Below, in pieces: positions 30,072 to 57,872 of a DNA stretch of 59,076 bases (within the stretch, counting starts at the first letter, position 1; the number at the start of each line of letters is the position of its first letter). Source of the stretch: a virus (taxonomy: Duplodnaviria; Caudoviricetes); IMG/VR virus record IMGVR_UViG_3300043353_000061, positions 1 through 59,076 of that record; one strand, 5' to 3'. The notes under the pieces are model-generated. The model saw only the letters and a program-made list of their open reading frames with translations. It was not told the DNA's origin and did not search any database. Position numbers and translations under genes: made by a program.

Positions 30072-30092
30072 GCCCAAAGCATGGCACCGACC

Positions 30093-30105
30093 GGGGAACC
30101 GGCGT
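30093..30105 (-). promoter_or_regulatory. Late-promoter motif ACGCCGGTTCCCC (fiber operon)
   Basis: Exact copy, N9-CATGCT-N6-ATG. Confidence 0.8.
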
Positions 30106-30107
30106 CC

Positions 30108-30656
30108 TCAGCACGTCGGCGACACCCTCAACACCTCTTGCCGTGCCGCGCTCCGCCCCGGCGCCCACGCCCGCCGGATCACAAACCGCCGACCATTCCC
30201 CCACTGCCGCTTGGCCCAGGCCACCACCCCCCGGCGGGCGCTCTGTTCGCTCGGGAACGGCCGGCAGCCGGGCGTCTCCTCCGCCTCGCACGCCCACTGG
30301 TATTCGGGGTGCCGGCCGATCACCCGGCCGCCCTCCCCGCAGGCGTCCACCTCCGCCCACCACCCACCGGGCGCCCGCCACACCACCCAGCCTTGAGTTT
30401 GCCGCAGGTGCCACACCTTCCGCCAGTTGGTGCCGAACGTGGCCTTCCAGTGGCGAATCAGGGTCTGAGCTGCGGCACGGGCGGTGGGCATCCCGGAGCA
30501 GATGCGTTTCTGGAAGAACCGCGCATGAAACGTGCCGCTCGTCTTGTCCGGGTACACCCCGTGGTAGCCGGTGTCGCTCTGGGGTCGGGTGTCGCGCAGG
30601 TACAGCAGGTCCGAGGCGGTGACTGGTAAAGGGTCGGGCTGTGTCTCGCAGGGCAT
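30108..30656 (-). CDS. AP2-like DNA-binding protein
   Basis: TGYHGVY..TFHAR..GMPTARAAA, plus a second degenerate unit. Confidence 0.55.
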   Translation of the reverse strand: MPCETQPDPLPVTASDLLYLRDTRPQSDTGYHGVYPDKTSGTFHARFFQKRICSGMPTARAAAQTLIRHWKATFGTNWRKVWHLRQTQGWVVWRAPGGWWAEVDACGEGGRVIGRHPEYQWACEAEETPGCRPFPSEQSARRGVVAWAKRQWGNGRRFVIRRAWAPGRSAARQEVLRVSPTC

Positions 30657-30808
30657 GGGGCGACCGCTCCGGGGGCGTGGTACAATGGGGTACACGTCTC
30701 GGAGCGGTCGCGGTAACACGGCGGCGGGGGTATTGCTGTGGCGGCGTGCCCCCGTCGTCGAACTCGAGTCTTGCACACCGGGCGGAACCGGCAGTTCAGT
30801 TCGGCGCC

Positions 30809-34780: not shown

Positions 34781-35953
34781 TTACGGGATGGCGTAGGTGG
34801 GGTCGTCGGCGTGTCGGAACAGGTGCGTGAAGTTGGTCGATTCCAGGGCGGTGACGCCGTTGTAGCTGCCACGGGTGGTGGAATCCCCGGCGGTAGCGAG
34901 ATACCAGTACCGGGTTTTGCGCCAGGGGAACAAGTGGTGCCCGTACTTGGGGTCGGGGGTCGGCCCGCTCACCACCCGCTTGACCGCCGCCGGGTCGCGG
35001 GGAGGGTCCATGTAGTCGAAGGAGAGGGTGTAGTCGGCCGCCCACGACCCGAACTCCGAATCGGTCCGAACCGGCAGTTGGTAGCTGTGCTCCTCCAGGG
35101 CGCTGAACAGCAGCGTGCCGGCCTTGTACCGCGAAGCCGTGCCGGGGAACGGGGCGTCGTTCACCGTCCCCAACTGCCGCACCAGCCGGACCGGCAGGGG
35201 CATCATGAACGAGTCGTAGTGCGCCTCGTCGAAGTCCATCCGCCCGCACGTGTACTCGATGGGCACCGCCCGCCAGGTGATCTGGAATTTAGTCACGTTC
35301 CGGCGGACGTATTGGGTGCCGTTGAAGGCGGACGCCGACCCGCTCCCCGCGGTCGGGCCGTCGCCCCCACCTTCCGCCCAATACAGGCTCGCCGCGTCCC
35401 CGGCGCCCTCGGCGGTGATGAGGTCGAGCTGGACCGACTTGCCGACGGTCCCCACGTTCCGCATCCACTCCTTGCCGATGTAGTTGTCCGCCCACGTCGG
35501 GTCGGTGTCGGCCCACTGCCGCCCCCACACCGGCTTGAACCGCACGAGGATGTCCACCTGCGTATACCGGGTGGTGAACGCCGGGGAGTACCCCTCGAAG
35601 CCGACGCTATCCTCTTTGGCTTTATTCGCGCCGACCGTCTGATGTTGCGCGAGCGGGTTCCACAGGAGCGGGGCGACGCTATCGGCCCACAGCCACGGGA
35701 ACCGCGGGTGCTGAACCGGCACCGCCTCCCGGTGCAGGCGGTACGGCGAGGCGAAGTCCGCCCAGCTCCAGCCGAGGATCTGTTGCAGGCAACTCCGCAC
35801 CTTGTTCGAGGTGGTGGTGATGAGCAGGGCTTCCTCGCTGTTCTGGAGCGAGTGCGCCCCCGACCCGCCGGGGTTCTCCTTCGCCACCTTCTCCCGCCAA
35901 TCGTCCAGGTCCCACAGGTCGGCCGGCTTCTCCGGCAGGATGATGACCGGCAC
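34781..35953 (-). CDS. Putative tail hub/baseplate protein
   Basis: HPRFPWL, GTVN..FPG..GTLLF patterns; location. Confidence 0.6.
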   Translation of the reverse strand: MPVIILPEKPADLWDLDDWREKVAKENPGGSGAHSLQNSEEALLITTTSNKVRSCLQQILGWSWADFASPYRLHREAVPVQHPRFPWLWADSVAPLLWNPLAQHQTVGANKAKEDSVGFEGYSPAFTTRYTQVDILVRFKPVWGRQWADTDPTWADNYIGKEWMRNVGTVGKSVQLDLITAEGAGDAASLYWAEGGGDGPTAGSGSASAFNGTQYVRRNVTKFQITWRAVPIEYTCGRMDFDEAHYDSFMMPLPVRLVRQLGTVNDAPFPGTASRYKAGTLLFSALEEHSYQLPVRTDSEFGSWAADYTLSFDYMDPPRDPAAVKRVVSGPTPDPKYGHHLFPWRKTRYWYLATAGDSTTRGSYNGVTALESTNFTHLFRHADDPTYAIP

Positions 35954-35956: not shown

Positions 35957-36475
35957 TCACCTCCCCGCGAAGTAGGCGATGTAGGTCACGGACTCGGAGG
36001 CGTGCGAGTCGAGCACCTTCACGTCCTTGTGGGTGGCGTCCACCGGGTAGCCCGTCGTGCCTACCGGGTCGCCGACCGCGTGTCCCGGCCCGCCCGGAAG
36101 GATGGTGCGGGTGTGGGCCGCGGCCCCGAAGTCGAGCAGGTGCTGGTTCGCCGCGGCGTTGCCGATGGTCAACTTGCCGGTCGTCGAGGTGATCGTGATG
36201 TAGCAGGCGACGAGTGTCGTCAGGCTGACGGTCCCGCTGGTGCCGTCCGGGCTGTCCAGCGCCTGCAGGTCAATGGTGGCGCTGGTGCCGAAGGTGAGCG
36301 TGCCCGACTTGAACCCGATCTTCTGGACGCGGTTGGTGATGGCCGCGTCGTCGTACCAGTCCGGCTGGCTGTATTCCTTCACCTTCGGCACGGCGCGGCT
36401 GAACGCCGTCGCGCCGATCGTGCAGGACGTCTCGACCCCCGTCGTCAGCTCGAATGAGGCGTTGGATACGGCCAT
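35957..36475 (-). CDS. Putative virion structural protein
   Basis: Beta-rich; start fixed by late motif spacing. Confidence 0.65.
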   Translation of the reverse strand: MAVSNASFELTTGVETSCTIGATAFSRAVPKVKEYSQPDWYDDAAITNRVQKIGFKSGTLTFGTSATIDLQALDSPDGTSGTVSLTTLVACYITITSTTGKLTIGNAAANQHLLDFGAAAHTRTILPGGPGHAVGDPVGTTGYPVDATHKDVKVLDSHASESVTYIAYFAGR

Positions 36476-36493
36476 GTGGTGAGCATGGCCGTT

Positions 36494-36531
36494 GCCGGGG
36501 AACCGGCGTCGGGGCACGCCGGTTCCCCGGC
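36494..36531. promoter_or_regulatory. Back-to-back late-promoter motifs forming a 16-bp inverted repeat
   Basis: Copies at 36497-36509 (-) and 36516-36528 (+), each 21 nt from an ATG. Confidence 0.85.
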
Positions 36532-36549
36532 GGCACTCACTCTGGTGGC

Positions 36550-37023
36550 ATGGCGTCCACGAACATCATCGACAGCGTGCAGCAGTTGTTCGCCGGCTTG
36601 GCCACGTTCAGCGGCAAGCCGAGTGCCCTGTGGCTCGGCCCGGTGTGGCCGACCTACGCCGGCTCGTTCACCAACCTGCCGTTCATCCAGTTCAACCACG
36701 ACGGCACCGAGGACGAAACCGACTTCGAGTACACGCAGTTGGAGATGTGGCCGTTCACGTTCGAGATTCGGGCGGAGACCGCCCAGCAGTGCATCCTCAT
36801 CCACGACCGGGTGAAGTTGAACGGCCAGAACCCCGAGGCGCAAGCCGGCTTCCGCTACGCGGCCACGATGACCATGCCGCCGGGCTACTCGTTCAAGGAG
36901 TTCCGCCCGGTCGGAAAGTGGCGGATCAACCCCGTCCCGGCCCAGACCGGGCCGTCCGGCGCCCCGCTCCACCTGCTCACCTTCCAGATGGAATTGCACG
37001 TCCAGCGGGTCACGTTCAGCTAG
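36550..37023 (+). CDS. Tail terminator-like protein
   Basis: Size, LPFI..FTFEIRA pattern, position before tube gene. Confidence 0.6.
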   Translation: MASTNIIDSVQQLFAGLATFSGKPSALWLGPVWPTYAGSFTNLPFIQFNHDGTEDETDFEYTQLEMWPFTFEIRAETAQQCILIHDRVKLNGQNPEAQAGFRYAATMTMPPGYSFKEFRPVGKWRINPVPAQTGPSGAPLHLLTFQMELHVQRVTFS

Positions 37024-37026
37024 CCG

Positions 37027-37039
37027 ACGCCGGTTCCCC
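37027..37039 (+). promoter_or_regulatory. Late-promoter motif (tail tube)
   Basis: Exact copy, N9-GAAGGT, then a 29-nt leader. Confidence 0.75.
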
Positions 37040-37083
37040 CCGCCGGGTGAAGGTGCGGTAGCACACCCACCGGATTCACCCTC

Positions 37084-37569
37084 ATGGCTCACCTTCCTGT
37101 CGCCGGCTCATGGGGGCGGGTCAACCTCGTGAAGGTCGCCCCATCACTGACCACTCCCGTGTTCACGTGGTCGGGGAGTACGGTCGTCGCCCGCCTGACC
37201 TCGTGGCGTGCCCGCGAGTCGAAGGCCGGCGGCACCCCGTCGGTGCTCGACTTCGAGAGCACGGCCGACGCCGAGGGCGTGCTGTACCCGACGCCCATCC
37301 GCGGCGGCACGGCCGAGATGCCATCGATTGATGTCGAGGGGAACGCGGACATCGACGCCACGTCCGGCACCCTCACCATCCTGCCAATGAACGCGGCCGT
37401 GGTGGTGGACTTCCTGATTTTCAAGACGGGCACCATCGGCTACGTCGGCGTGCCGTGCGTGGTGCAGTCGTTCGAGATCGGCGGCAAGGTGGACGACAAG
37501 ACGTTCACCTTCCGGGCCACGTTCGTGGCGGGCGCGCCGCTCAAGAACTACATCGACGTAACCCCGTGA
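37084..37569 (+). CDS. Tail tube protein (putative)
   Basis: 161 aa beta-rich, precedes chaperone and tape measure. Confidence 0.65.
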   Translation: MAHLPVAGSWGRVNLVKVAPSLTTPVFTWSGSTVVARLTSWRARESKAGGTPSVLDFESTADAEGVLYPTPIRGGTAEMPSIDVEGNADIDATSGTLTILPMNAAVVVDFLIFKTGTIGYVGVPCVVQSFEIGGKVDDKTFTFRATFVAGAPLKNYIDVTP

Positions 37570-37573
37570 GGCT

Positions 37574-38152
37574 ATGAGTACAGAACACCCGCTCCCGGTG
37601 TCCGACTTGTTGGGCAACGACGGGCCGTTGCCGGAGATTCACTTCAACGGGCAGGTGTATCCCGTCGGGCTGCCGTGCCCGGAGGTGGTCGCCACCGCCG
37701 AGAGTGTGGTGCCGGCGATGGCACTGGCCAACCTGAAGGGCACCCAGGCGTTCGCCGACCCCGCCGAGTACGCGAAGGACGAGGCCCGCATCAAGGCGGC
37801 CGTGCGGGGCAAGGAGTATGGGTTCGGTCGCCCACTGTTCGCCGAGGTGATCGGCGGGGCCGATGGCAACAAGGTCATCCTGTGGGCGTGCCTGCGACTG
37901 AAGACGCCGGGCGTCACGCTCAAGGACGTGGCGGACATGCTGCGCGACGAGACCGCGTCCGTGGAGCTGGAAGCGGCCCTGGAGGTGGTCGCCCCGGCTT
38001 TTTTCTCGACCGCGGCCGAGCGGATGGAGGCACCGCCGCGGGACCGGCAGGCGATGGCGGACACGATGGCGAAGCAGGCGCTGGCGAGCGTGCTGGAGCA
38101 GAAACTCCGCCGCCTGACGGCTCTGGCCTCGAACTCCTCCCCGGCCCCCTGA
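37574..38152 (+). CDS. Tail assembly chaperone (G-like)
   Basis: Position; T TTT TTC slippery heptamer at 37999-38005. Confidence 0.65.
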   Translation: MSTEHPLPVSDLLGNDGPLPEIHFNGQVYPVGLPCPEVVATAESVVPAMALANLKGTQAFADPAEYAKDEARIKAAVRGKEYGFGRPLFAEVIGGADGNKVILWACLRLKTPGVTLKDVADMLRDETASVELEAALEVVAPAFFSTAAERMEAPPRDRQAMADTMAKQALASVLEQKLRRLTALASNSSPAP

Positions 38153-38445
38153 AGGCTTACGCCGCCCTGCTGTTCGACGGCATGGGCGGGGCGAACGGCC
38201 TGCTGCCGCACGAGTTCAAGCGGTACACGTTCGACCAGATCGAGGCGTGGTGGCTGCGGCCGATGGCGGCCATGCGGAAGGCGACTGAGAGGGCGCAAGG
38301 CGGGAAGGCGGTCGAGGCGCCCGCCCCCGGCCCGATGACGATGGAGCAGTTCCGCGCCACGTTCGGCGACGTGTACCGCGACAAACCCGACGACTGGTGG
38401 GCGGGGGCGCTCGCCAAGTGGAACCGGGAGGCGGCCAGTGGCTGA
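37999..38445 (+). CDS. -1 frameshift extension of tail chaperone (T-like)
   Basis: -1 frame is open from slippery site to 38445; LLPHEFKRYTFDQI segment. Confidence 0.55.
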   Translation, partial: FFLDRGRADGGTAAGPAGDGGHDGEAGAGERAGAETPPPDGSGLELLPGPLKAYAALLFDGMGGANGLLPHEFKRYTFDQIEAWWLRPMAAMRKATERAQGGKAVEAPAPGPMTMEQFRATFGDVYRDKPDDWWAGALAKWNREAASG

Positions 38446-39565
38446 CCCACGACAGCAGGCGGAGAACGCGATCAAGGCCGAGCAAGAGGCGAAAGCCGTT
38501 GCGAAGGCTCTGGAAGCACTCCGCAAGGAACTCGACCCGACCCGGCAGGCACTCCAGAACACGGAGAAGGCCGCGGGCGGGTTCCGCGCCGTCGTCAGCG
38601 GCCTACAGTCGGTGGCCTCGATGGGCGGCCAACCGGCCGCAGCAATCAGCGCCGTGGGCGGGCAGTTCGGCAAACTGCTGTCGATGGCCGGGCCGTGGGG
38701 GGCGGCGGCCGGCATGTTCGTGGAAACGCTGAGTAGTCTCCCCCAGATGTTCAAGTCGGCCGGGGACAGCATCGCTGGATACGTCGGGAAGTTGAACCCG
38801 ACGGCCGCGGCCCGGTGGACGCAGGCGTGGGACGACATGGCTGCGGCGATCGGCGGCTACCTCATGCCCATTTTGGAGAACATGACGGGGGTGGTGAGGT
38901 TCTTCGGGGACGCCATCGCGGGGTGGCAGCCCATCATTCAACCCATCATCGACCAGGCCATGCGTCTGGCTGGGTCGTTCGGCTCGGCCTTCGGCGGGGT
39001 GATCGACAGCCTGATGGAGTTCTCGGCGGTCGGCGTGCAGGTGCTGGTGCCGTTCCTCCAGATCATGACCGACATCAACGCCGGCCCGCTCCGGCTGGTG
39101 GTCATCGGCCTGCAGGCGTTCAGCATGTGGCTGCACAACGTCGCCCAACAGTTGGCCCTGTTCTTCGGGATCGACCTGCCCAAGTTCAACGGGTCAAGCG
39201 CCGGCATGGCTGCCCGATCAACGGGGGTCAGTTCGGTTCAGGCGATGCTGACGAACCTTCAGACGCGGGCGTTCGCGCTCGGCGGGAGCAGCGGCAAGGG
39301 GGCCGACCCGGCGTTGCAGGCGGCGAACTTCCTGGAGAAGATCCTGGGCTGGATCGAAAAGACGCTCCCCGCGGAACTGAAGGCCCGAGCCAAAGAGATT
39401 GTTGACGCAATCACGACCGCGGCCAAGCAGGTGCCCGGCCAGGGCGCGGTCGGTCTGGCGTCGGGCGCCGTCAACGTGCAGTCCGGAATGAACAACGCCG
39501 TCGAGAACGCGAAGTTCGGCCTCCGACAACTGGGGTCGATACTGATGCCGCGGTTCGCCACGTGA
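38438..39565 (+). CDS. Short tape measure protein
   Basis: Ala/Gly-rich helical protein after chaperones. Confidence 0.7.
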   Translation: MADPRQQAENAIKAEQEAKAVAKALEALRKELDPTRQALQNTEKAAGGFRAVVSGLQSVASMGGQPAAAISAVGGQFGKLLSMAGPWGAAAGMFVETLSSLPQMFKSAGDSIAGYVGKLNPTAAARWTQAWDDMAAAIGGYLMPILENMTGVVRFFGDAIAGWQPIIQPIIDQAMRLAGSFGSAFGGVIDSLMEFSAVGVQVLVPFLQIMTDINAGPLRLVVIGLQAFSMWLHNVAQQLALFFGIDLPKFNGSSAGMAARSTGVSSVQAMLTNLQTRAFALGGSSGKGADPALQAANFLEKILGWIEKTLPAELKARAKEIVDAITTAAKQVPGQGAVGLASGAVNVQSGMNNAVENAKFGLRQLGSILMPRFAT

Positions 39566-40437: not shown

Positions 40438-40458
40438 GCGGGGTTCCTCCGGAAAAAG

Positions 40459-42219: not shown

Positions 42220-42888
42220 TCACGCGATGAGGAGTTTGCGGTAGTTCTTCAGCATGCCGGCGACCACGGGGGAGATGAAGTCTGCGGCCCCTTCCTTTTT
42301 CCGGCTGATGACGTCGGTGTTGATGGTGATCGAAGCGCCGTCCATCGAAGCTGAGGTCACAAGGCCCACCCCCCTCCCGCCCGTCCCCAGGTTGTACCGG
42401 GCCAACGCTTCCATCAGCGCTGCTTCCTGTGCCGCGGACAGCGCGGCGGTCGTGTCGGCGGTATACACCACCTTCAGCGTCCCGGTGTCCGCTCCGATGG
42501 TGCCCGCCAGACGGTCGGGGGCACGCCGCACCTCGTATGGCCAGTTGCACCCCAGGCGGACGATCGCCGTTGATCCGGCTTTCGCCTGCATGTAGTCGGT
42601 GTCTAATTCGAGGAGTGTGTCCGACGCGAACTCGCGGCTGTCGTCCAGGTACACCGCCGACACCGTGACCGGCACGTTGCACCCGACGTCGCGGACGCTG
42701 ACACTATCGCCCCCATTCGGGCCGAGGTACTCGGTGTGCCCGGTGGCGAAGTCGGCCGTTTCCGGATCCCACCCCAAGTAGTCCTTGACCGCTTGTGCGG
42801 CGGCGCTCACGAGCTGAGTCAGGCGGGCATCACGGTCCGTAGACGAGATGCCGAGTTCCGACTTGAAAAGCGGCAACGAGAGCAACAT
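42220..42888 (-). CDS. Head-tail connector/adaptor (gp6-like)
   Basis: LSL..FKSELGI..D..L..L..AA..V..YLG; LKNYR end. Confidence 0.75.
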   Translation of the reverse strand: MLLSLPLFKSELGISSTDRDARLTQLVSAAAQAVKDYLGWDPETADFATGHTEYLGPNGGDSVSVRDVGCNVPVTVSAVYLDDSREFASDTLLELDTDYMQAKAGSTAIVRLGCNWPYEVRRAPDRLAGTIGADTGTLKVVYTADTTAALSAAQEAALMEALARYNLGTGGRGVGLVTSASMDGASITINTDVISRKKEGAADFISPVVAGMLKNYRKLLIA

Positions 42889-42909
42889 GCCCCAACGATG
42901 GCCCGACTT

Positions 42910-42922
42910 GGGGAACCGGCGT
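42910..42922 (-). promoter_or_regulatory. Late-promoter motif (adaptor)
   Basis: Exact copy, N9-CATCGT-N6-ATG. Confidence 0.8.
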
Positions 42923-46657: not shown

Positions 46658-48037
46658 TCACTCGCCCTTGAGTTCGGCGTAGGCCGCGGCGATGGTCTGC
46701 AGGGCCGCCAGTTCGTCCTTGTCCACCAGCGTTTGCCCCGGCGGGATGACTTTGGCCTTGCGAACGAGGGCCGCGGGGTACGGGTTGCCGCTGGCCTTCA
46801 CCAGCCGGTCGGGGCGCCACTGGATGCCGTCGAACGCCTGGGACTTCATCACGCCCGTGTCGTCGTCCGTCTCGACGGGTTCGGGTTCCGCGTCCGGGGC
46901 TTCCTCGGCCATCTCTTCGCCCCCCTGGCTCGCGGCCACCTTCTCGGCGGCGGCCTTCGCCTTGGCGGCGACCGCACGCCCGGCCTCGCACAGCTTGGCC
47001 AGGTCTTTCAGCCCTTGCGGGTGCTCGCCCGACTCGCCCATCTGCTCGGCCGCCGCGCAGGCGTCCTCGATCCCCTGTGCGAGCTGGAACAGGCTGGCCG
47101 GGGTCGGCTTCATGTCGGGGGCGGTGGGGGCGGCGTCTTCGGGGGGCGGGGTATCGACCGGAGCGGCATCGACGGGCGGGGTCACGTCAGCCCCCGGCTC
47201 GTCGTCGTACATGCCCGCTTTGTTCACCCGCTTGGGGGCCGTCTTGGTCATGGTGGCTCCTCGGCCGGTGACGCGGTTGTTGGGCTTGAGGTTCAGCACG
47301 TCGGCGAGCGGCCGGGCCGCCTTGCGGATGATGTCGGACGTGGTCGCGGTGTCGCAGAGTCGCAGCGCCTTCTCGGCGCGTGCCATGACCTCGTCTGACG
47401 CTTGCACGTACCCGGCGAACTTGTTCACCGGCAGCTCGCAGGCGGCGGCGTAGCCGATGGCCCGCGACTTGATGAAGTGGAAGGCGTCGCGGTTTTTCAG
47501 CAGTTCGGATTTGCCGAGCGACTTGTACCACCCGCTCACCGGCTGGAACTCGAAGCTCACGCCGGAGAAGACCGAAGGGACCAGCGGGGCCAGTTCCTGG
47601 CTCAGCCGGTAGCACTCGTCCGCGTCGTAGGTGCCGTCGAGTTTCCCCGTCGCCGGGTCATACTTCCGCAGGGTGTGGTTCTCGGCGTCGGCGTAGCTCT
47701 TGAAGAACGTGGTCACGCCGAACGGCAGGGCGATCTCGCCGAGCGTGTCGTCCGGCTGCCCCGCCTTGTTCAGCCGGGGCACCACCTTGTATTCCACTTC
47801 CGCGGTGCCAATGGGCTGGCGGTGCTCGAAGTTGACCAGCCGCTCGTGGACGCTCTCGAAGTCGCTCCAGTCGATGCCGGCCGGGTCAACGCGGTCCCCT
47901 TGCAGGTCCGGTTCGGGGTAGGTGATGAGCGCTTCGGGGGTCGTCCCACTGCCCGCCGCGCTCTTCGTGACGCGGTCGCCCGGCCAGCGGTGGAACGCTG
48001 GCATCGGGGATGCGAACACGCGGCGGGGCAGGTCCAT
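46658..48037 (-). CDS. Prohead protease with acidic scaffold-like C-terminus
   Basis: DLQGDRV, NFEH..PIG, SGVSFEF, PVN. Confidence 0.75.
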   Translation of the reverse strand: MDLPRRVFASPMPAFHRWPGDRVTKSAAGSGTTPEALITYPEPDLQGDRVDPAGIDWSDFESVHERLVNFEHRQPIGTAEVEYKVVPRLNKAGQPDDTLGEIALPFGVTTFFKSYADAENHTLRKYDPATGKLDGTYDADECYRLSQELAPLVPSVFSGVSFEFQPVSGWYKSLGKSELLKNRDAFHFIKSRAIGYAAACELPVNKFAGYVQASDEVMARAEKALRLCDTATTSDIIRKAARPLADVLNLKPNNRVTGRGATMTKTAPKRVNKAGMYDDEPGADVTPPVDAAPVDTPPPEDAAPTAPDMKPTPASLFQLAQGIEDACAAAEQMGESGEHPQGLKDLAKLCEAGRAVAAKAKAAAEKVAASQGGEEMAEEAPDAEPEPVETDDDTGVMKSQAFDGIQWRPDRLVKASGNPYPAALVRKAKVIPPGQTLVDKDELAALQTIAAAYAELKGE

Positions 48038-48058
48038 GACGGGAGTTTCCCCGCCGCG

Positions 48059-48071
48059 GGGGAACCGGCGT
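48059..48071 (-). promoter_or_regulatory. Late-promoter motif (protease-capsid operon)
   Basis: Exact copy, N9-GAAACT-N6-ATG. Confidence 0.8.
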
Positions 48072-48838: not shown

Positions 48839-48946
48839 AGCCCGAAGTGTACACGGCACTTGAAGTGGTGCTATAATTCGGGGCCGGTGGGTGCTACCAA
48901 CACACCACCGGCCCCTGAACACACCCAACCTTCTGAGAGGCCGGGC

Positions 48947-49730: not shown

Positions 49731-52700
49731 TCAGGCTCCGGTGGGTTTCATCTGGCCCTTGCGGTTCTTCTTGTGCTCCCCGCCCGCCCTGCCGTCCACC
49801 TTCACGAAGTGGAACTCGCCCGCACCCGACGGGTGGAGCGTGTGGCTCCGCAACACGTCGTCCGGGTGGTGGTCTTGAGGCATATCGACCCGGTTCAGGT
49901 TCACCTTGGCTTTGGCGTTCAGGGCCAGCAGTTTCTCTTTGAACTCCGGCAGAGTCAGTTCGGGGTGCGACTTCTTCAGGTCGTCGTACACGTCGGAGAT
50001 GAACGCCTTGTTCGGACCGCTGCCGTACTCGGCGGTTCGTGCCGCCTCGTTCACCTTCGCGGCGATTTCGTCGTCGGTGTGGGACAGAAGAGTTTTGGCG
50101 GGTGTCATCGGCTTGCCTCCCGTGGCAGGTGCGGGAGTTTTGCCGGCGGGCGTCGGCTTGTCAATGTTCGTAGCCCCCACCTTCGCCTTGCCCAGCACAT
50201 ACTCCCCGCCCTTCCCTTCCACAATCCTGTGCCCGTGGCTCCGCACCGTGACGGGGGCACCCGTGGAGACGGAACTATCGCTCTCGTGGTGAACCGGGTT
50301 GAAGGGCACAGTTGACCCCACCTCGCCAATCCTCTCGGCTCCGACGTGCTCACCAGTCAGCAGCGAATCGGCGATCTCGGCGGCGTCGTGCTTCCCAAGT
50401 CTCACGGCGTCCCGGTGGGCGCTCTGTAGCCGGCGGGCGACGAGCCTACGGTGGTCACGATCACTCAGCCCTTCCTCAGCCCCGCTCACGTTGCCGAGTG
50501 CCACTTCCGCTGCGGACGTATCCTTGCCCGCTGCCTGGTGCTTGCCCACTTCCGCCGCGAGGGCTTGCGAGCGGGGGTGGGCGAAGGACAGGGACTCGCC
50601 GTCGGCGGTGGTCAGGGTGTGGGCGGGGGGCGGGGTGGGCGAAGACTCAGCCACCTTCCGTGCGTGTGCCGTCCCCTCGTTCTCGCTCTCCCCGTTGCCA
50701 CCCGGCCCCTTGCCGCCGCCGGTCAGGATCGGCGTGGCGTCCGGGTTCTTCCGCCGGCCCCACGCGGCCGACAGCTCGGCCCGCCGCGCCTTCTCGGCCG
50801 GCGTGAGCGAGCGGAACGGCTTGCGGTTGAGGGACGCCAGTTCGGCGTCGTCCGGGTGGGCCTGCGGCCCATCTGAGGTGGCTACTCCGCTTCCTGCTCC
50901 GTCGCTGGCGAGGTTGGCGATGGGATCGGCTGAGTGCGCACTTCCAGAATCCACCCCGACGGAAGGCTGATTGACGTTTTTTGTTCGTCCTGAATCAACG
51001 GTAGCGTCGCCGGCTGTTGATCCGTTTGGTTTTGCAAGTCCGAACTCCTGAAAGACTTGGTAAGACTCGGGGAACTTCTGTTTTAGTGTGTCTTCGTCTA
51101 CCGCTCCCGTCCACAGACACATACCGAACTCAGCGAACCCCTCGAACGTAGACGCCGCCCCCAAATTCGACAGCCCGCCGCCTGCCATCTCTTTTTCCCA
51201 CGCTTGCCTCCATTCTTCCGTATTACTGAATGAGAAGCTGTCACCGTCAATGACGTGAGCATATTCGTGGGCGTGGTTTTGTGCGAGGCGCTTTGGGTTC
51301 GTCTCCTTGCCTACAACCACCTCGCCGGTTTGACGGTTGTAAGCTGCTGGAACTGTCGCCCCCATCTGCTTCAGTCGCTTCAAACTCTCCTGCTCAGGGT
51401 GTTCTTTAATGAACTGATCCAAGAGATCACGTTCGTTGGACACCGTCAATTTAGATAGGTTTTTGGACAACAAGCCCGCAGCCTTATCCGACATCCGCGA
51501 ACACGCCGTCGCGGCCGCTTTTTTGTGGTCGTATTGATATCCTCTGGGAACGTCTGACGCATCGATATCGGCTACGAGACGGGCTTTTAATGCCTCCGTC
51601 ACCCCCTCCACCTTCTCCCCCGGCCCGACCCCCCGCTTCGGGAACTCATCCCGCGAAGCCTCAGGCTTGCCACCAGTGCCCCCCGCCGCCTGCCCCCACG
51701 CCCCGTACTGACCGCTCACCTTGTTCCCCGCCCGTTGCAGCGCATCCCCGACCCCGTGCCCCTTCTCCCGCCCGGCCTTGATCGCGTCCACGAGCCGTTG
51801 GGCGACGTCCATCTGTAGCCCGCTCACCTTCTGACCCAGCACCCGCAACAGCCCCTTCGCCTCCTCTTTGTTGAGTGCGTGGACGTGGGCGATCAGGTTC
51901 TTGGCCTGTTCCGGGTTGAGCTTGTTCGGGTCCGAAACAGCCATTGCCACGATGGTGTGGCTCTCGTGCTTCTGCTCGGCGGTCAACTCCTTGGCGCCGC
52001 CCTGGTGCGTCTGCACCCCCTCATCCGCCGCTTGGCCCGCCGACTGCCCCCGGTGCGTCTCGCCCTCCGCCGGCTTCACCCACACCACCTGCCGATTCCC
52101 AAGCCGGTTCGTGATGACCTTCCGCACGAGGTGACTTCGATCGCCCTTCGTCACCCGCTCCAGCTCCCACTCGTCTTCCACGTCCTGCAACAGTCGCTCA
52201 TACTCGTCGGGGTCGAACGCCTTCACCCACCGCAGCACGTCGCCCAGCCCTTCCGCCTCTGCTTCCGCCTCCAGCCGCTCTTCCGCTTCATCCGGCACCT
52301 CCTCCAACATCGTCGCAATCGGGTCGTCCAACTCCATCACAGCCGCCTTCACGACTCTCCAATTGCTCCATTCTGATACACAGGCTTCCAGTGCGTACAG
52401 GAACGCGCTGGCGGCGTCTTCTCTCGCCAACGACTTGACCCGCCGTGCCACGGGGATCGCCAGCCTACGGGCCACTGGGAGCGGTTCCAGGCGCCGTGCG
52501 GTCGGCAGGCGCTGGGCGACGGGGAGTTCGCGGGCAATCTGGGGGGCGATGGGGGTGGCGCGACGGCGTGCGATTGGCACAGCCGGCCTTGCCGCTACGA
52601 CCGTTGCCATCCGTCGTTTCAGCACCACCGCGACCTGTTGAAGTTCCTGCGGGTTGAGGGCACTCAGGGCGTCAATCAGGGCCGGCAGCTTCTCCGGCGT

Positions 52701-53327
52701 GATGGTCTCGGGCTGCGTCACCGCTTCGGCCACGGCTTGCCGCTTCTCGGGGACCGACGCCCCGAAGACGGCATCGAGGTCCGGGTTGTGCCGCAGGTTG
52801 GAATCGTCGGGGGGCGGGGGTGACGCACTTGGTGCCCCGAACGCCGCGTCGAGGTCGGGATTGTGGCGGGGGTCAGTAGACGGTGCCGACGCCGGCCGTG
52901 CGGTCTGCTCGGCCTCCGGCGCTCGTGTCAACTGCACCACCTTCTCCCGTGCCGCCTTGACCTTCGCATCGGCCTCTTTCAGTTTCGCTTGTAGCCCCTG
53001 GAGCTTCTCGTGGTTCTCTTTGGCCGCAATCGCTTGTTCCAATTGCCCCCGGATGGCTTCCACTTCGGCCTTGGCCTTCTTCGTCTCCTTGCGGAAGTGC
53101 CGGTCGTCGCTGTCGCGGTCGTCGCGGTTGCCGTAGGTCACGCCGGGGGCGACCCGCGACTGGTGCCGGCCGTCGTTGGGCCGGACCCATCGGTGCTTCT
53201 GCTTGTCGAAGACGAGGCCGGGGCGGGGTGGCGTGCCCTGGGCCTTGAGGAACGCCAGCCCGACCTCGGCGAGCGTGCGGGTGCGGACGTCCTCGAGGGC
53301 TTTGCGGATGTGGTCGGAGACGGTCAC
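49731..53327 (-). CDS. Large multidomain head-associated protein with zincin (HEYAH) domain
   Basis: Between portal and protease; HAHEYAHVID..EGFAE; GrpE-like FNPVHHE segment; start 53327 or 53420. Confidence 0.78.
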   Translation of the reverse strand: MTVSDHIRKALEDVRTRTLAEVGLAFLKAQGTPPRPGLVFDKQKHRWVRPNDGRHQSRVAPGVTYGNRDDRDSDDRHFRKETKKAKAEVEAIRGQLEQAIAAKENHEKLQGLQAKLKEADAKVKAAREKVVQLTRAPEAEQTARPASAPSTDPRHNPDLDAAFGAPSASPPPPDDSNLRHNPDLDAVFGASVPEKRQAVAEAVTQPETITPEKLPALIDALSALNPQELQQVAVVLKRRMATVVAARPAVPIARRRATPIAPQIARELPVAQRLPTARRLEPLPVARRLAIPVARRVKSLAREDAASAFLYALEACVSEWSNWRVVKAAVMELDDPIATMLEEVPDEAEERLEAEAEAEGLGDVLRWVKAFDPDEYERLLQDVEDEWELERVTKGDRSHLVRKVITNRLGNRQVVWVKPAEGETHRGQSAGQAADEGVQTHQGGAKELTAEQKHESHTIVAMAVSDPNKLNPEQAKNLIAHVHALNKEEAKGLLRVLGQKVSGLQMDVAQRLVDAIKAGREKGHGVGDALQRAGNKVSGQYGAWGQAAGGTGGKPEASRDEFPKRGVGPGEKVEGVTEALKARLVADIDASDVPRGYQYDHKKAAATACSRMSDKAAGLLSKNLSKLTVSNERDLLDQFIKEHPEQESLKRLKQMGATVPAAYNRQTGEVVVGKETNPKRLAQNHAHEYAHVIDGDSFSFSNTEEWRQAWEKEMAGGGLSNLGAASTFEGFAEFGMCLWTGAVDEDTLKQKFPESYQVFQEFGLAKPNGSTAGDATVDSGRTKNVNQPSVGVDSGSAHSADPIANLASDGAGSGVATSDGPQAHPDDAELASLNRKPFRSLTPAEKARRAELSAAWGRRKNPDATPILTGGGKGPGGNGESENEGTAHARKVAESSPTPPPAHTLTTADGESLSFAHPRSQALAAEVGKHQAAGKDTSAAEVALGNVSGAEEGLSDRDHRRLVARRLQSAHRDAVRLGKHDAAEIADSLLTGEHVGAERIGEVGSTVPFNPVHHESDSSVSTGAPVTVRSHGHRIVEGKGGEYVLGKAKVGATNIDKPTPAGKTPAPATGGKPMTPAKTLLSHTDDEIAAKVNEAARTAEYGSGPNKAFISDVYDDLKKSHPELTLPEFKEKLLALNAKAKVNLNRVDMPQDHHPDDVLRSHTLHPSGAGEFHFVKVDGRAGGEHKKNRKGQMKPTGA

Positions 53328-53331
53328 GGGG

Positions 53332-53613
53332 TCACTCCGCCGGTTCGTAGATGGCCGCGAAGATATCCGGCTTGCACGGGTAACATCCGCGGCCGTCTGG
53401 CTCGGCAATGACCCAGTCACCGGGAGCCACCGGCGTCTTGTGCCCGTGGGCCGTGACGCAGAACGCCTCGCACTTTTGGTTCGTCCCGCTGGCGTCCGGC
53501 TCGCTCCACTCGAACACCAGCGGGAGAATGTCGTTGTTGATGAATCGGTGGTTGTCGCCGCCGTCGCGGTACTGCATGGCTTCGACCACCACCGGCTTCT
53601 TGCGAAACTTCAT
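53332..53613 (-). CDS. Conserved phage protein (PGDYG-like)
   Basis: MKFRKKPVVVEA..PGDWVI..YPCKPDIF..YE. Confidence 0.8.
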   Translation of the reverse strand: MKFRKKPVVVEAMQYRDGGDNHRFINNDILPLVFEWSEPDASGTNQKCEAFCVTAHGHKTPVAPGDWVIAEPDGRGCYPCKPDIFAAIYEPAE

Positions 53614-55157
53614 ACCTTGCACACCTCCTCAACCAGCCCCGCGAAGTAATCACTCAGAGACTTTTGCACCTTGCCCGGTAGCGAGCCGGCGGACGCATCA
53701 CCCACGTCCGGCCCTTCCAAATCCCCCGGCGCGAACGGCTCGGCGTTCGGGTTGCCGCCGAGGAGTGCGGCCAGTGGGTCGGCGGGCGCTCCGGGTTGAG
53801 GTCCGCCCGGCATCCCGCCCGGTTGCGGGCTTTGCTTCTGCTGCATCGTCGCCGAGAACTCCGCGGGCGTCACGTCCCCCCACTCCACCGGCTTCATGTC
53901 CACCGAAGCGCGAATTTCATTAATCGTGTAGGTGTTCGCACTTGTGGCCCCCGTGAGCATTGCCCACTGCCGCTCTTTCTGGTCCGGGTCCATGAGCGGG
54001 GCGAGCTTGATTTCGACGCGGTAGTCAGGCCCCCAGTGCGGCAGGATCAAGTCCTTCGTCCACCGCTGCCCGATGCTGTTGGCCTCGCCGCCGAGAGAAC
54101 CCTCACGCCACGCACGGGCCGAAGCGTAAAAGCCTGAGTAGTCCGAATCCGCGAGATAAGCGCACACCGCCGGCACGCCGAACAGGGCCAGCACCGCCGC
54201 CGTGCCCTTCTCGTAGTTCTCCCCGAACGCCATTTTGTCCGGGGTGGAGCCGAGCATCTTCACATCGACACTTTCCCCATCCCCGACGAGGAACCGCTGC
54301 CCGCGGTTGGCCCCGACGAACTTCTCGGCAATCCGCTTGTCCATCTGCTCGAGCTGGTCCGGGCTGGCGCCCGCCATCGCAATCACGGCATCGAGACTCA
54401 GCCCCTTGTCCATCGCACCCTTGATCGCATCGATGGTGCCATTGAGCATGTCCACGAGCTTGTTCCCGCCGGTCAGCGGGCTGTGGCTGTCCCACGGGAA
54501 GATCGGGTGGGGTCGCTTGTGGAGGACCAATCTCTCCCTGGGGATAATCATCGTCCCGCCCGCGTTCCAGCCCAGGAACGGCCCGGTCGAGGTGTACTGG
54601 TACGCGCCACGCGGGTAGTCGGGCGACAGGCCGACGGTGGCGCTCAGGTAGTTCTTGCGGAGGTTCCAGAGTTCCGCCGGCTTGCGGTCGCCCTTGCCGG
54701 GATACCACATCACCGTGCCTTGCCCGAACAGGCAGCGGCACAGGGTGTATTCGGCCAGGAAGTCGGAGGCGGTGTCCTTCTCGTTCGGGTTGGCGAACAG
54801 CCGGCTAATCGGGTGGTCGTGTTCGACCGGCGTCCACTCGGATTCTCGACTGCCGGCGGCGCTGGACGCCTGAGACTTGCTGACCCGTCCCTTCTGCCGC
54901 TGGAGAACAACCACCTCGGCACCGGCCATCGCCGTCATCACCGTGTTCACCGCGATGTACACGGCGCTGTGAAAGCTCCGCGCCATCTGGTGCGCGTCGT
55001 CGGTCCACTGCGCGGGCGGGTCGCGCCGCCGCATCTCGGAGACGCGGAGGAGTTGCTGCCGGTCGGCCGGGGTGCCGGGGTCGTCCCGGAGTGCGGGCAG
55101 ACCGTAGGCGTTGCGGTTGCCGAGGCTGTCCACGGTCACGGTGGGAAGTGCGGCCAT
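53610..55157 (-). CDS. Portal protein
   Basis: HPISRLFANPN, LFGVP, TINEIRA. Confidence 0.9.
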   Translation of the reverse strand: MAALPTVTVDSLGNRNAYGLPALRDDPGTPADRQQLLRVSEMRRRDPPAQWTDDAHQMARSFHSAVYIAVNTVMTAMAGAEVVVLQRQKGRVSKSQASSAAGSRESEWTPVEHDHPISRLFANPNEKDTASDFLAEYTLCRCLFGQGTVMWYPGKGDRKPAELWNLRKNYLSATVGLSPDYPRGAYQYTSTGPFLGWNAGGTMIIPRERLVLHKRPHPIFPWDSHSPLTGGNKLVDMLNGTIDAIKGAMDKGLSLDAVIAMAGASPDQLEQMDKRIAEKFVGANRGQRFLVGDGESVDVKMLGSTPDKMAFGENYEKGTAAVLALFGVPAVCAYLADSDYSGFYASARAWREGSLGGEANSIGQRWTKDLILPHWGPDYRVEIKLAPLMDPDQKERQWAMLTGATSANTYTINEIRASVDMKPVEWGDVTPAEFSATMQQKQSPQPGGMPGGPQPGAPADPLAALLGGNPNAEPFAPGDLEGPDVGDASAGSLPGKVQKSLSDYFAGLVEEVCKV

Positions 55158-55178
55158 AGCCGTATGGTGGCATGGCGT

Positions 55179-55191
55179 GGGGAACCGGCGT
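55179..55191 (-). promoter_or_regulatory. Late-promoter motif (portal)
   Basis: Exact copy, N9-CACCAT-N6-ATG. Confidence 0.8.
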
Positions 55192-55358: not shown

Positions 55359-55360
55359 GG

Positions 55361-56785
55361 TCACATCCCCGCGAAGTATTTCCGGCCACTGTTCACGTAC
55401 ACAGAGACGTAACGTAGACAGTCGCAAGAATGGTCGTTGTGTTCGATGGGTTCGTCCTTCGCCTGATCCGGCTTCGGCACCTTCCAAGTGTACCCGACGA
55501 TTTCCTCGAGCAGAGACAGTGGCTTGCCTTCCGCCTTCAGTGTCGGATCGGGTCGGTGCCGGCGGGCGTCCGGGCGAAACATGATGCGGGGCTTCCCATC
55601 CGCCTGAACATCAAATAACCCCTGCACCAACTGAATCCCTTTGTCCCGGTCGCGTTTGTCGGCCGGGCTGGCGTGGACGCTGAACGGCTGAGACTTGCCC
55701 TCCACTGTCCGCTCGCCCTTGCAGTACTGGTTCCAGGTGGCGGTGTTCTCCGGGTCGTGGTCCGCGACCACCTTTTCCGGGGGCGGCTCGTCGCCATCGC
55801 TCACCAGTTTGGCACACTCCTTGGCCACCTCCTCCACCCGTGTCCGTGTCTTGTAAATCTCGCGGTACAGGTGCATCCGCTTGTCCCCATCAATGGCCCA
55901 CATCTGCACTACCAGCGGCTGCACGAACCCCCAGTCGATGCCCCACACCCGCCGCCACTCTTTGGGAGGTTCCCACCCGGCGGGGTGGTGATGCACTTGG
56001 GGATCATAGCCGTCGTACACCAGCCCTTCCGCCGACACCCACAGCCCACGCTCGAAGCGGTTGCGGCGGGCGCCGGTCATGCGGCCGAGTGTTTCCAGGT
56101 ACGCCTTGCCGGCCGGCGTCCAGTCGCCGTTCAGGTAGAACGCCGGGTTGTCCTTGTGCGTGCCGCTCAGCATGGTCAGCGGGCCGTCGCTCTGCCGGCG
56201 GTACAGCCAGTGCGTCGGCGTCGTCGGGTTGCAGTCCATCAGGATTTGCGGGCACGGCGTCTTGCCGTTCCGCAGTGACCGCAACAGCGTCTCGTAGGTC
56301 TCGAGCGTGACCCCCTCTTCCGTGGCTTCCTGAATGTAGATCGCGTCGTATTCGCTACTCAGCGTCTTGCCCGGATCGTCCAGCCCGGCGACCACCATCT
56401 CGGAGCCGTTCGGGAACTCGTAACTCTGCCGCACCCGTCGCGTCACCGGCCGGCGGGTGAGGACCGGGTGCCGCTCGCCGAGGATCTTCTCCCACGTCAC
56501 CAGCCCCGATTGCGTGAGGCTGGCCCGCGTGCCCCGGCAGAACAGCACCCGGCAGCCGGGGTGGGACTCGAGCAGGCGGTAACAGCGGGCGAGCAGTGCG
56601 TAGGACTTGCCCGTGCCGGCCGGGCCGGCGAGCAGCAGCTCCGGTGCGGTCGAGCGGTAGGCGTCCCGATTCGCCCCGTGGAACTGGAACCGCAGCAGGG
56701 GCGACCCGGCGAGCGACAGCAGCAACCCGTCCACCCGCTTGCGGTCGGCCGGGTTGAGGGCGGCGAGCAGGGCAGCGGGTGTCAC
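55361..56785 (-). CDS. terL: Terminase large subunit
   Basis: GPAGTGKS, IYIQEA, DCNP, GIDWG, DHSCDCLRY. Confidence 0.95.
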   Translation of the reverse strand: MTPAALLAALNPADRKRVDGLLLSLAGSPLLRFQFHGANRDAYRSTAPELLLAGPAGTGKSYALLARCYRLLESHPGCRVLFCRGTRASLTQSGLVTWEKILGERHPVLTRRPVTRRVRQSYEFPNGSEMVVAGLDDPGKTLSSEYDAIYIQEATEEGVTLETYETLLRSLRNGKTPCPQILMDCNPTTPTHWLYRRQSDGPLTMLSGTHKDNPAFYLNGDWTPAGKAYLETLGRMTGARRNRFERGLWVSAEGLVYDGYDPQVHHHPAGWEPPKEWRRVWGIDWGFVQPLVVQMWAIDGDKRMHLYREIYKTRTRVEEVAKECAKLVSDGDEPPPEKVVADHDPENTATWNQYCKGERTVEGKSQPFSVHASPADKRDRDKGIQLVQGLFDVQADGKPRIMFRPDARRHRPDPTLKAEGKPLSLLEEIVGYTWKVPKPDQAKDEPIEHNDHSCDCLRYVSVYVNSGRKYFAGM

Positions 56786-57072
56786 TCGCCCCTCACGCGG
56801 TAGCCGAGTTCGGTGGCGATCGGTTCGCCTTCCGCCGACTTCGCGGACGGGATGGCCGCCAGGAGTGCCGCCCGGCCGGCGTCGTAGCCGGCGCGGAATT
56901 CGGGCGTTCCGAAGTGGTGCCAGCCCGGCGTGAGGTCGGCCTCCTGTTGGGTGTACGCGAACCCTTCCACGCCCAACCGCCACCCGCCGAACCAGCGGAA
57001 GGCGGCCTGCTCTTGGGGGGTCGTAGTAGGTAATGCCGGCAGCATGACCGGCGACCTGTCTGGCTTGCTCAC
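56782..57072 (-). CDS. Hypothetical protein
   Basis: GTGA overlaps on both sides. Confidence 0.55.
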   Translation of the reverse strand: MSKPDRSPVMLPALPTTTPQEQAAFRWFGGWRLGVEGFAYTQQEADLTPGWHHFGTPEFRAGYDAGRAALLAAIPSAKSAEGEPIATELGYRVRGE

Positions 57073-57680
57073 TCGCCGCCCTCTGGAGTTGTGGCCGTCC
57101 CACCGAGTATCATCCGCACCAGTGCGATCTTCTCCGCCTCGGTCATGCCGTCCACCGGCTTGTCGTCATCCTTGAACAACCCGAGCTTCTTGCACAGCTT
57201 GTCGAGCGCGTCGAGCTTGCTGTACAGCTTGTACTCGACCTCCTCGACCTCCTCGACCAGATCATCGGACGCCTTCGACTTCACCTTCCGCCGCTTCACC
57301 TTGGCCACCTGGACGGCCTTCCGGGCGAGCGGGCGGATGCGGCTCGGCGGCTTCGCCCGGTCGAACTCGCCCTCGACCTCCTCGAACACCTCGCCGATGT
57401 CGGAGAACGCGACCGCCGCCAACTCCTTCAACACCTTCAGCCCGGAGATGCGGAGGTCGCGGGCGTACCCCTCCCGCATCGCCTGGAGTTCCGCCTGAAT
57501 GCTAGGGTTCGCTAGAAGCTTTGACGATTCGCACCGGGCCGTCCCGTAGGAGTGTTCGGGGAACGCCTTCAGGTAGGCCTGGGTGGCGTTGCCGTCGAAC
57601 GCGATGTACTCCTCGAGGAATCGCCGCTGTGACGTGGTGACTCCCAGGTCGCTCACCAACTTGGGCGTGCCCGTGGACAT
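57069..57680 (-). CDS. terS: Terminase small subunit
   Basis: QRRFLEEY..NATQAY, LKELAAVAFSDI, KLDALDKLCKKLGLF. Confidence 0.92.
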   Translation of the reverse strand: MSTGTPKLVSDLGVTTSQRRFLEEYIAFDGNATQAYLKAFPEHSYGTARCESSKLLANPSIQAELQAMREGYARDLRISGLKVLKELAAVAFSDIGEVFEEVEGEFDRAKPPSRIRPLARKAVQVAKVKRRKVKSKASDDLVEEVEEVEYKLYSKLDALDKLCKKLGLFKDDDKPVDGMTEAEKIALVRMILGGTATTPEGGE

Positions 57681-57683
57681 GGC

Positions 57684-57872
57684 TCAGGTATCTTGGCCCG
57701 TGGGCGGGGAACCGGCGTTGGGCTGGTGTTCGGCGGCGTGCAGGAAGTGCTGCCGGGTGTCACGCTCGCCGGCCTTGTACCCCGCGATGTACCCGAGTAT
57801 CGGGTAGCCAACCGCCATGAGGATCAGCAGGGCAAGAGTGCCCCGCGCCCGGTCTGCTTCGTTAAGTTGCAT
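57684..57872 (-). CDS. Small membrane protein
   Basis: One TM helix. Confidence 0.45.
   Translation of the reverse strand: MQLNEADRARGTLALLILMAVGYPILGYIAGYKAGERDTRQHFLHAAEHQPNAGSPPTGQDT
57706..57718 (-). promoter_or_regulatory. Late-promoter motif (terS)
   Basis: Exact copy, N10-CAAGAT-N9-ATG. Confidence 0.75.

Follow-up and report, generated by a model that had tools for sequence, protein, structure and literature searches.

Invariant 13-mers phased to gene starts mark putative, mostly leaderless late promoters of a temperate tailed phage

We analysed a 59,076-bp linear stretch of phage DNA, the entire IMG/VR record IMGVR_UViG_3300043353_000061 (hereafter the window; estimated completeness 75%, G+C ~66%), whose gene content is that of a temperate tailed phage. 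The window carries an invariant 13-mer, ACGCCGGTTCCCC, set before its late genes. On balance we consider it probable that the 13-mers are the upstream elements of phage-specific late promoters producing mostly leaderless mRNAs, with a phage sigma factor as the likely reader; this judgement covers the statement as a whole and leans most on its promoter and leaderless parts. Taken part by part, the eight sites are very likely real late promoters, and leaderless starts would, given such promoters, be nearly as secure, while the naming of a phage sigma as the reader is an even call. Five lines of evidence support the promoter and leaderless reading: the phasing of the sites, the absence of Shine-Dalgarno sequences, their late-only placement, the lack of late sigma-70-type promoters, and conservation in a diverged relative.

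The 13-mer and its phasing to gene starts

An exact scan of the whole window returned eight copies of ACGCCGGTTCCCC where 0.03 are expected, and none of 100 shuffled sequences reached that number. Every copy reported in the original prediction, an earlier reading of the sequence that proposed a leaderless late regulon, was recovered at its position. All copies lie in the late region, between 30 and 58 kb; the exact scan found none in 1–30 kb, in agreement with the earlier claim that the early region lacks them. In a k-mer repeat search ACGCCGGTTCCCC was the sole standout long k-mer of the genome. When up to three mismatches were allowed, the window held no copy with one mismatch and one copy with two (20567, minus strand, within a gene), and the three-mismatch class was at or below chance, the mismatch scan totalling 48 matches against 59 expected. 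Non-exact copies, defined as 6/8 matches to the 8-nt core of the element plus the hexamer described below, numbered 23, versus 34 for a reversed-core control. Because degenerate copies sit at background, the motif class appears to be all-or-none.

The placement of the copies is equally regular. All eight are directed toward a downstream gene, and four occupy intergenic gaps of just 33–37 nt with nothing else inside: on one side the stop codon of the preceding gene touches or runs into the 13-mer, and on the other the gap ends at the ATG. Each 13-mer is followed by a hexamer of the form NANNNT, after a spacer of 9 nt at seven sites and 10 nt at the site at 57706. NANNNT occurs at a frequency of 0.0256 per position in this genome, which puts the chance of 8/8 at offset 9 or 10 at ~4e-11. 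At six of the eight sites the ATG lies exactly 6 nt past the hexamer and 21 nt past the 13-mer, with the same hexamers that had been listed beforehand. At 57706 the ATG lies 25 nt past the 13-mer and 9 nt past the hexamer CAAGAT; at 37027 these distances are 44 and 29 nt (hexamer GAAGGT), for a predicted leader of ~23 nt. The 5' end of the 13-mer coincides with the position at which a −35 hexamer would start if its spacer were 16 nt.

Genes led by the 13-mer also differ from the rest in their translation starts. We scored the anti-Shine-Dalgarno duplex over the 18 nt upstream of each start, using an anti-Shine-Dalgarno sequence from general knowledge and a cut-off of −6 kcal/mol. None of the eight motif-led genes reached the cut-off, versus 44 of 80 (55%) other called genes (Fisher p=0.0055; the 80 comparison starts include some uncertain calls), and many of the Shine-Dalgarno-bearing comparison genes carry a plain GGAGG. 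The earlier observation that six of these starts lack a Shine-Dalgarno thus stands. ATG is the start codon of all eight motif-led genes, versus 51 of the 88 called genes overall.

The early region carries a different promoter class. A consensus scan found five sigma-70-type promoters in 1–19 kb, where 1.9 ± 1.5 are expected, and one, at or below expectation, in 19–59 kb. One of the early promoters heads the leftward early operon (Table 1); others, TTGCCA or TTTGCA with TATAGT, lie deeper in the region and have leaders and Shine-Dalgarno sequences. On this distribution the early genes appear to be under host-type control, and the 13-mer class would be the only one in the late 28 kb. The window holds no other repeated motif that could mark a second (middle) promoter class, and a FliA-type consensus gave a single chance-like match, within a gene.

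Genes were called with a codon-usage model and annotated by PHROGs and Pfam family scans of 88 window open reading frames (ORFs). Each copy had been said to head a structural unit: all eight do point at a downstream gene, and the terS, portal and adaptor labels were confirmed. The labels 'protease' (the 459-aa protein), 'tube', 'terminator' and 'tail' found no family match. For 'fiber', the scans gave a weak match to a Gp77 fiber-tail adaptor, just under the cut-off, with a Laminin_G/tail-fiber protein further down the operon. The proposed leaderless late regulon is partly supported overall.

Three further observations concern the sites themselves. The back-to-back promoters 6 and 7 (36497–36528) have their 13-mers inverted about a 6-nt centre, forming a 32-nt near-palindrome with predicted starts 75 bp apart. 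In the assembly of one sequencing run, two contigs join with a 5-base overlap at 36525–36529. The gene that starts at 30656 is preceded by an intergenic gap of 152 nt, which contains a three-mismatch copy, CTGCCGGTTCCGC, at 30782–30794 (minus strand), with AAGACT at offset 9. This copy may be due to chance or may be a weak ninth site, whose leader would measure ~100 nt.

A diverged relative and the probable host

Among deposited phages there was no DNA match for 30–50 kb of the window, and only two portal matches, at 24%. A capsid search of IMG/VR returned three relatives with more than 50% identity. One of them, G002 (L010; 43 kb, 49% complete, 72.6% G+C), has a capsid 58% and a portal 26% identical to those of the window, and carries ten copies of CGGCAGGTTCCCCC. 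The two elements have an 8-nt core, GGTTCCCC, in common and differ in the 5' flank: ACGCC-GGTTCCCC with a spacer of 9 in the window, CGGCA-GGTTCCCCC with a spacer of 10 in G002, each reported invariant within its phage. In G002 the element begins where a −35 hexamer with a 17-nt spacer would begin, and in both phages the conserved core spans −29 to −22.

The phasing recurs as well. NANNNT stands at offset 10 at nine of the ten G002 sites, versus none for the reversed-pattern control, and at the tenth site the hexamer is TACTAT, at offset 12; a hexamer with A2 and T6 thus stands at the fixed offset at 8/8 window sites and 9/10 G002 sites. An ATG or GTG follows 6–8 nt past the hexamer at five of the ten. 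The other five have longer leaders, ~30–36 nt where measured, and at least two of these carry a GGGGGAG Shine-Dalgarno. Although the two phages differ in gene order and strand, six of the eight window promoters are matched in G002 by a site facing the same gene family; the families concerned are packaging, portal, the 459-aa head protein, the phrog_442 adaptor, the phrog_22694 operon and the 161-aa protein encoded from 37084 (Table 1). Because so distant a relative shows the same arrangement, the motif looks like a real phage-specific switch. The leadered promoters of both phages also have in common a partly self-complementary leader element resembling GCACACCC..CCGGGGGA (window 37055–37083; G002 26765–26800, 35198–35227 and 40684–40715).

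G001 (L259–L261), a provirus estimated at 77% complete whose capsid is 64% identical to that of the window, lacks the core motif as well as homologs of both sigma-like proteins of the window. The exact motif with its geometry occurs in no other IMG/VR contig, a generalised pattern gave 10 single, chance-like matches there, and the G002 14-mer gave more than 124 mostly single matches, with the geometry in G002 alone. Tandem copies of the 14-mer in two contigs (L145 and L203) were set aside, as they apparently lie inside coding sequence. None of 25 planctomycete prophage loci found by their capsids is enriched in the motif.

G001 has repeats of its own. An 11–13-nt element, (C)TTACGCGCCTAA(C), occurs in nine copies, mostly intergenic and some beside hairpins (for example 2837+, 35340+, 46426+ and 46529−), in a geometry unlike that of the window promoters, and a 9-bp tandem array of AGCCGCGCG/TCAGCCGCG lies at 26113–26269.

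Two clues bear on the host. The nearest prophage capsids (47–52% identity) include no actinobacterial one; at 19 of 25 loci they come from Planctomycetota metagenome-assembled genomes. In addition, the TIGR02996 'rpt_mate_G_obs' domain is present in two window proteins and one G002 protein (E 1e-16 to 1e-22; Table 1), and in four of the five planctomycete genomes with related prophage capsids versus 0 of 14 control genomes. These capsid and domain clues are suggestive of a planctomycete; the host is probably of that group and not an actinobacterium, contrary to the actinophage framing implicit in the original prediction. In the motif scan of host DNA that it had called for, core plus geometry showed no enrichment in the five planctomycete genomes, which may not be the host's, with 5 matches against 8 for the control. 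One of the TIGR02996 proteins (5603–6430) is encoded in a stretch that the gene caller left intergenic.

Candidate readers and competing explanations

The early region encodes two sigma-like proteins (Table 1). Sigma A can be aligned with SigA/RpoS structures in region 2 (residues ~81–120) and region 4 (~166–229), and the alignment shows that F, Y, the second W and R of its region 2.3 motif are kept. The residues at two positions that presumably read T at −12 are not kept; if their roles are as we take them to be, these changes would fit promoters with C or G at −12. A single homolog was found, at 47% identity on a 1.6-kb contig, and a metagenome scan with it gave two weak, uninformative loci among the matches listed.

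For sigma B, the nearest relatives in a set of 5.8 billion proteins are FliA/WhiG at only ~32%, and no relative was found in IMG/VR. Its structural model has confident sigma2 (1–78) and sigma4 (133–199) domains, a disordered linker and no sigma3. A C-terminal module of ~90 aa (11644–11940) contains four cysteines (CPHC...C...C) and a basic patch, is modelled at moderate confidence as helix-helix-hairpin-helix, and may be a zinc-binding DNA-contact domain. As none of its look-alikes in the structure Atlas reaches TM 0.5, a zinc finger is no more than a lead here. The two sigma genes have an 85%-identical 34-nt stretch in the part coding for region 2 (4471–4504 and 12346–12379), consistent with their being paralogs.

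These elements can be assembled into a tentative scheme. Host-type promoters (TTGACA/TATAGT), presumably read by the host's main sigma, would express the early operon including both sigmas. A phage sigma would then replace the host sigma on the RNA polymerase core; sigma A is favoured because its region 2 is SigA/RpoS-like. Region 4 of this sigma, possibly with additional contacts, would read the 13-mer (about −34 to −22), and region 2 would capture A-11 and T-7 of the minimal hexamer on melting. Transcription would begin 7 nt after the T of the hexamer, which is the A of the ATG at six sites, ~3 nt before the ATG at one and ~23 nt before it at one; with the predicted start at or near the ATG, seven of the eight late units would begin leaderless, and ribosomes would load directly at the 5'-AUG. 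With eight such promoters, spaced at an average of 3.5 kb, the virion genes would be supplied without one long antiterminated transcript.

Several points weigh against this scheme. Across three genomes, the window (G000) has both motif and sigmas, G001 has neither, and G002 has the motif and, in its 43 kb (a 49%-complete contig), no homolog of sigma A or B; the sigma is thus tied to the motif by co-presence in one genome. The core lies nearer the −10 than a classical −35 hexamer does, a position as suitable for a composite element or for binding by an activator as for sigma region 4, and a −35 element usually has fewer than 13 invariant bases. With no T at −12, the −10 hexamers are weak, and activity without a dedicated factor is therefore doubtful. 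The host is identified by indirect clues, no RNA run is among the sequencing runs listed with this phage, and a literature search found no study of planctomycete transcription starts or leaderless messages, the matching work being on Sinorhizobium.

The strongest alternative keeps the late promoters and changes the reader: a phage activator would bind the 13-mer, replacing −35 recognition for the host sigma, whether by sigma appropriation or by class II activation, and the phage sigmas would serve other genes. Middle promoters of T4 work in this manner, with a MotA box near −30 and appropriation of the host sigma by AsiA. T4 middle promoters are also mentioned in the introduction of PMC5312081. 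The window sites resemble them in that a box lying between the classical −35 and the spacer would replace the −35 while a −10 hexamer is kept; the core, at −29 to −22, is centred near −26 to −30, where we take the MotA box to sit, and NANNNT suits a region 2 of the housekeeping type. Small DNA-binding candidates are present, including several helix-turn-helix (HTH) proteins and a ribbon-helix-helix (RHH)-like 82-aa ORF that is a lesser candidate regulator, and the lack of a sigma homolog in the 43 kb of G002 also fits. Yet the family scans of the window ORFs found no MotA- or AsiA-like family, although distant analogues are possible, the window −10 has no T at −12, and late structural genes are served. 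The genes before the first late promoter are non-homologous in the two phages, and therefore no conserved activator candidate is visible: a conserved regulator gene at that place was considered and rejected, since the G002 gene there encodes a Cys-rich protein, not homologous to the RHH-like ORF. Both sigma genes would, moreover, be left without a visible cognate promoter class, as there is no second repeated motif. We regard an activator as a minority possibility; a MotA-like protein is in our view no likelier a reader of the 13-mer than a phage sigma.

Planctomycetes encode many extracytoplasmic function (ECF) sigma factors, and a host factor, either an alternative sigma or a host activator, could read the sites and be exploited by both phages. 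This would explain why two phages without a visible common regulator have the same core and geometry, and two-domain or ECF-type sigmas typically have stringent promoters. The lack of enrichment in the planctomycete genomes, which may not include the host, speaks against it, as does the absence of an AAC-type ECF −35 (as we know the consensus) on the transcribed orientation. Flanks and spacing that differ between the phages and are invariant within each are better fitted by phage-specific cognate factors, and we consider a host factor improbable.

Marginally less probable still are repressor sites like the stoperators of L5 and other Cluster A mycobacteriophages, which would silence the prophage late genes, perhaps besides a promoter function. 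As far as the available part of PMC9283540 describes them, L5 stoperators are 13 bp long, asymmetric and situated in short intergenic spaces, and their orientation is tied to transcription. The window sites match in all these respects (8/8 lie with transcription), and the phage, with its integrase, is temperate. L5, however, has more than 20 negative-acting sites across its whole genome, in promoters as well as intergenic spaces (PMC9283540, same part), whereas the window has eight invariant sites before late units only. These are phased to NANNNT and a start codon, which a block to elongation would not require and of which the available part of PMC9283540 makes no mention; no repressor family of the L5 type, with an HTH and a stoperator domain, was matched in the PHROGs and Pfam scans.

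Least probable of all, and in our view very unlikely, is a signal at the RNA or translation level, like the start-associated sequences (SAS) of Cluster K phages, or a promoter for a single-subunit RNA polymerase whose gene would lie in the quarter of the genome absent from the contig. The 13-bp length, asymmetry, single orientation, tight start-codon association and ATG preference recall SAS, which are absent from the host genome, and the contig is incomplete, but SAS lie 3–7 bp from the start with an AGGAG core and serve non-structural genes (PMC3203893, in part), whereas the window motif ends 21 nt away before structural genes and has no Shine-Dalgarno, neither model gives a role to the phased A-11/T-7 hexamer, the window has no Rfam match, the PHROGs and Pfam scans showed no polymerase gene, and such a polymerase would be unusual in a temperate, integrase-bearing phage.

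Genome context, known systems and significance

Feature coordinates are collected in Table 1. The leftward early region encodes an Erf recombinase, a replication initiator, a methyltransferase, several HTH proteins and the two sigma-like proteins. The 1229-aa protein encoded 3' of portal has a G002 counterpart of 1646 aa (L097:13269–18206, plus strand), also 3' of portal, whose C-terminus carries an ART-PolyVal ADP-ribosyltransferase domain. Amid the late units lies a lower-GC island (39567–41836; GC 0.61) with an HTH_3 protein (40195–40437, minus), an HNH endonuclease (40967–41836, plus) and a tRNA_anti-like/Sie-like protein; it holds the strongest terminator-like hairpin of the window (40539–40569, minus) and looks like a moron or immunity insert. 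The HTH_3 protein has a 41% homolog in G001, beside two copies of that phage's own repeat. No tRNA gene was found anywhere in the window.

Table 1. Predicted promoters, candidate regulators and other features of the window, with counterparts in G002
Feature	Position	Strand	Components or basis	Genes served or remarks	G002 counterpart
Exact copies of ACGCCGGTTCCCC	30093−, 36497−, 36516+, 37027+, 42910−, 48059−, 55179−, 57706−	as signed	exact scan
Promoter 1	57680..57718	−	13-mer 57706–57718; spacer 10; hexamer CAAGAT 57690–57695; terS ATG 57680	predicted leader ~3 nt; predicted to serve terS, then terL	site 8405, before terL
Promoter 2	55157..55191	−	13-mer 55179–55191; hexamer CACCAT 55164–55169; portal ATG 55157	intergenic gap 33 nt	site 11315, before portal
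Promoter 3	48037..48071	−	13-mer 48059–48071; hexamer GAAACT 48044–48049; ATG 48037	459-aa protein	site 19489, before homolog (29% identity) of the 459-aa protein
Promoter 4	42888..42922	−	13-mer 42910–42922; hexamer CATCGT 42895–42900; head-tail adaptor ATG 42888		site 25513(−), before its phrog_442 adaptor
Promoter 5 (sole leadered site)	37027..37086	+	13-mer 37027–37039; hexamer GAAGGT 37049–37054; ATG 37084	predicted start near 37061; 161-aa protein gene, then 3 more + strand genes to 39565	site 26741, before homolog 26801–27229; long leader of similar sequence there too
Promoter 6	36516..36552	+	13-mer 36516–36528; hexamer CACTCT 36538–36543; ATG 36550	157-aa protein
Promoter 7	36473..36509	−	13-mer 36497–36509; hexamer CATGCT 36482–36487; ATG 36475	172-aa phrog_22694 protein gene, then ~6 more − strand genes to ~30108	phrog_22694 protein within operon after site 25735
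Promoter 8	30069..30105	−	13-mer 30093–30105; hexamer CATGCT 30078–30083; ATG 30071	50-aa ORF, then Gp77-like fiber-tail adaptor candidate, large Laminin_G/tail-fiber-like proteins to ~24 kb
Sigma-70-type promoter	16367..16395	−	TTGACA-N17-TAGAGT	head of leftward early operon
Sigma-like protein A	4030..4752	−	Sigma70_r4 (Pfam); alignment to SigA/RpoS structures	240 aa
Sigma-like protein B	11644..12501	−	Sigma70_r2 + r4; closest FliA/WhiG	285 aa
82-aa ORF	57862..58110	−	weakly ribbon-helix-helix (ParG E=0.096)	last gene before first late promoter
TIGR02996 proteins	5603–6430; 48071–48928	−	profile match		L097:10415–11299 (+)
Integrase	17842–18867	−	PHROGs/Pfam
Leftward early/replication region	~16.4 kb to 0.4 kb	−	gene calls + PHROGs/Pfam
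terS	57069–57680	−	Pfam Terminase_2
terL	55361–57103	−	PHROG/Pfam
Portal	53610–55157	−	Pfam/PHROG
1229-aa protein	49731–53420	−	without family match	3' of portal
459-aa head-module protein	starts 48037	−	without family match	major capsid downstream
Major capsid protein	45430–46617	−		virion module
Head-tail adaptor	42220–42888	−	phrog_442
Short + strand block	36550–39565	+		between − strand late units
Long − strand block	36475 to ~19 kb	−		includes Laminin_G/tail-fiber-like proteins

Among the runs listed, DNA of the phage was matched in four soil DNA runs, and in soil metagenomes only. The other three of these besides the original run, from different studies, gave short low-depth contigs identical to the phage (window 36000–55999). 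The phage is thus not confined to one sample, and as these pieces are identical they offer no variation usable as a test of conservation.

Sets of late or middle promoters read by phage sigma factors are well known, as with gp55 of T4, gp28 and gp33/34 of SPO1, and gp36 of phiEco32. SPO1 also figures in the abstract of PMC13401047. Like these phages, the window phage has sigma genes of its own in the early region, a conserved non-host element before its late blocks, and host-type early promoters. It differs in that its element is a contiguous invariant 13-mer reaching −22, joined to a minimal A-11/T-7 hexamer, and in that most of its late messages are predicted to be leaderless; its sigmas, moreover, are orphans (32% to FliA/WhiG, and a single 47% match), linked to the motif by co-presence.

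Mycobacteria have leaderless mRNAs that arise from −10-proximal starts. Phage transcripts, too, are often leaderless, according to PMC5312081. The window sites resemble such cases in their A2/T6 hexamer 6 nt before the ATG and their lack of a Shine-Dalgarno, and differ in that the design would be systematic, applied to the first gene in seven out of eight late units of a single phage. With phage-specific late promoter sets being textbook knowledge, and leaderless messages already known from phages, the earlier statement that this is not a described system was too strong. The novelty lies in this motif and its invariance, in the predicted systematic leaderless design and in the probable host clade; among the matches listed, a literature search found no phage or bacterial promoter work on the 8-nt core.

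The general picture of phage temporal control is unchanged by these sites. If they act as proposed, they would form a compact and clean regulon of eight identical elements, each with a minimal −10 and the start codon at +1, an economy that lets each promoter fit in ~35 nt between genes. They would offer a test system for three questions: how a small phage sigma or activator recognizes an extended −35/spacer element, to what extent A-11 and T-7 can by themselves serve as a −10, and whether bacteria of the likely host phylum translate leaderless messages. The diverged pair of phages, with related and distinct motifs, is a natural specificity swap, and the promoter–factor pairs would be candidate orthogonal expression tools in high-GC bacteria.

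A broader reading is that a lineage of planctomycete temperate phages runs its whole virion programme from orthogonal promoter–sigma pairs and AUG-first mRNAs, with promoter and reader co-evolving; a two-domain sigma, possibly with an appended zinc-binding module, would then read a contiguous 13–14-bp element across the −35 and the spacer. We put this forward tentatively and consider it less likely than not. If true, it would make orthogonal parts for expression available and give a first view of phage transcription control and leaderless translation in Planctomycetota.

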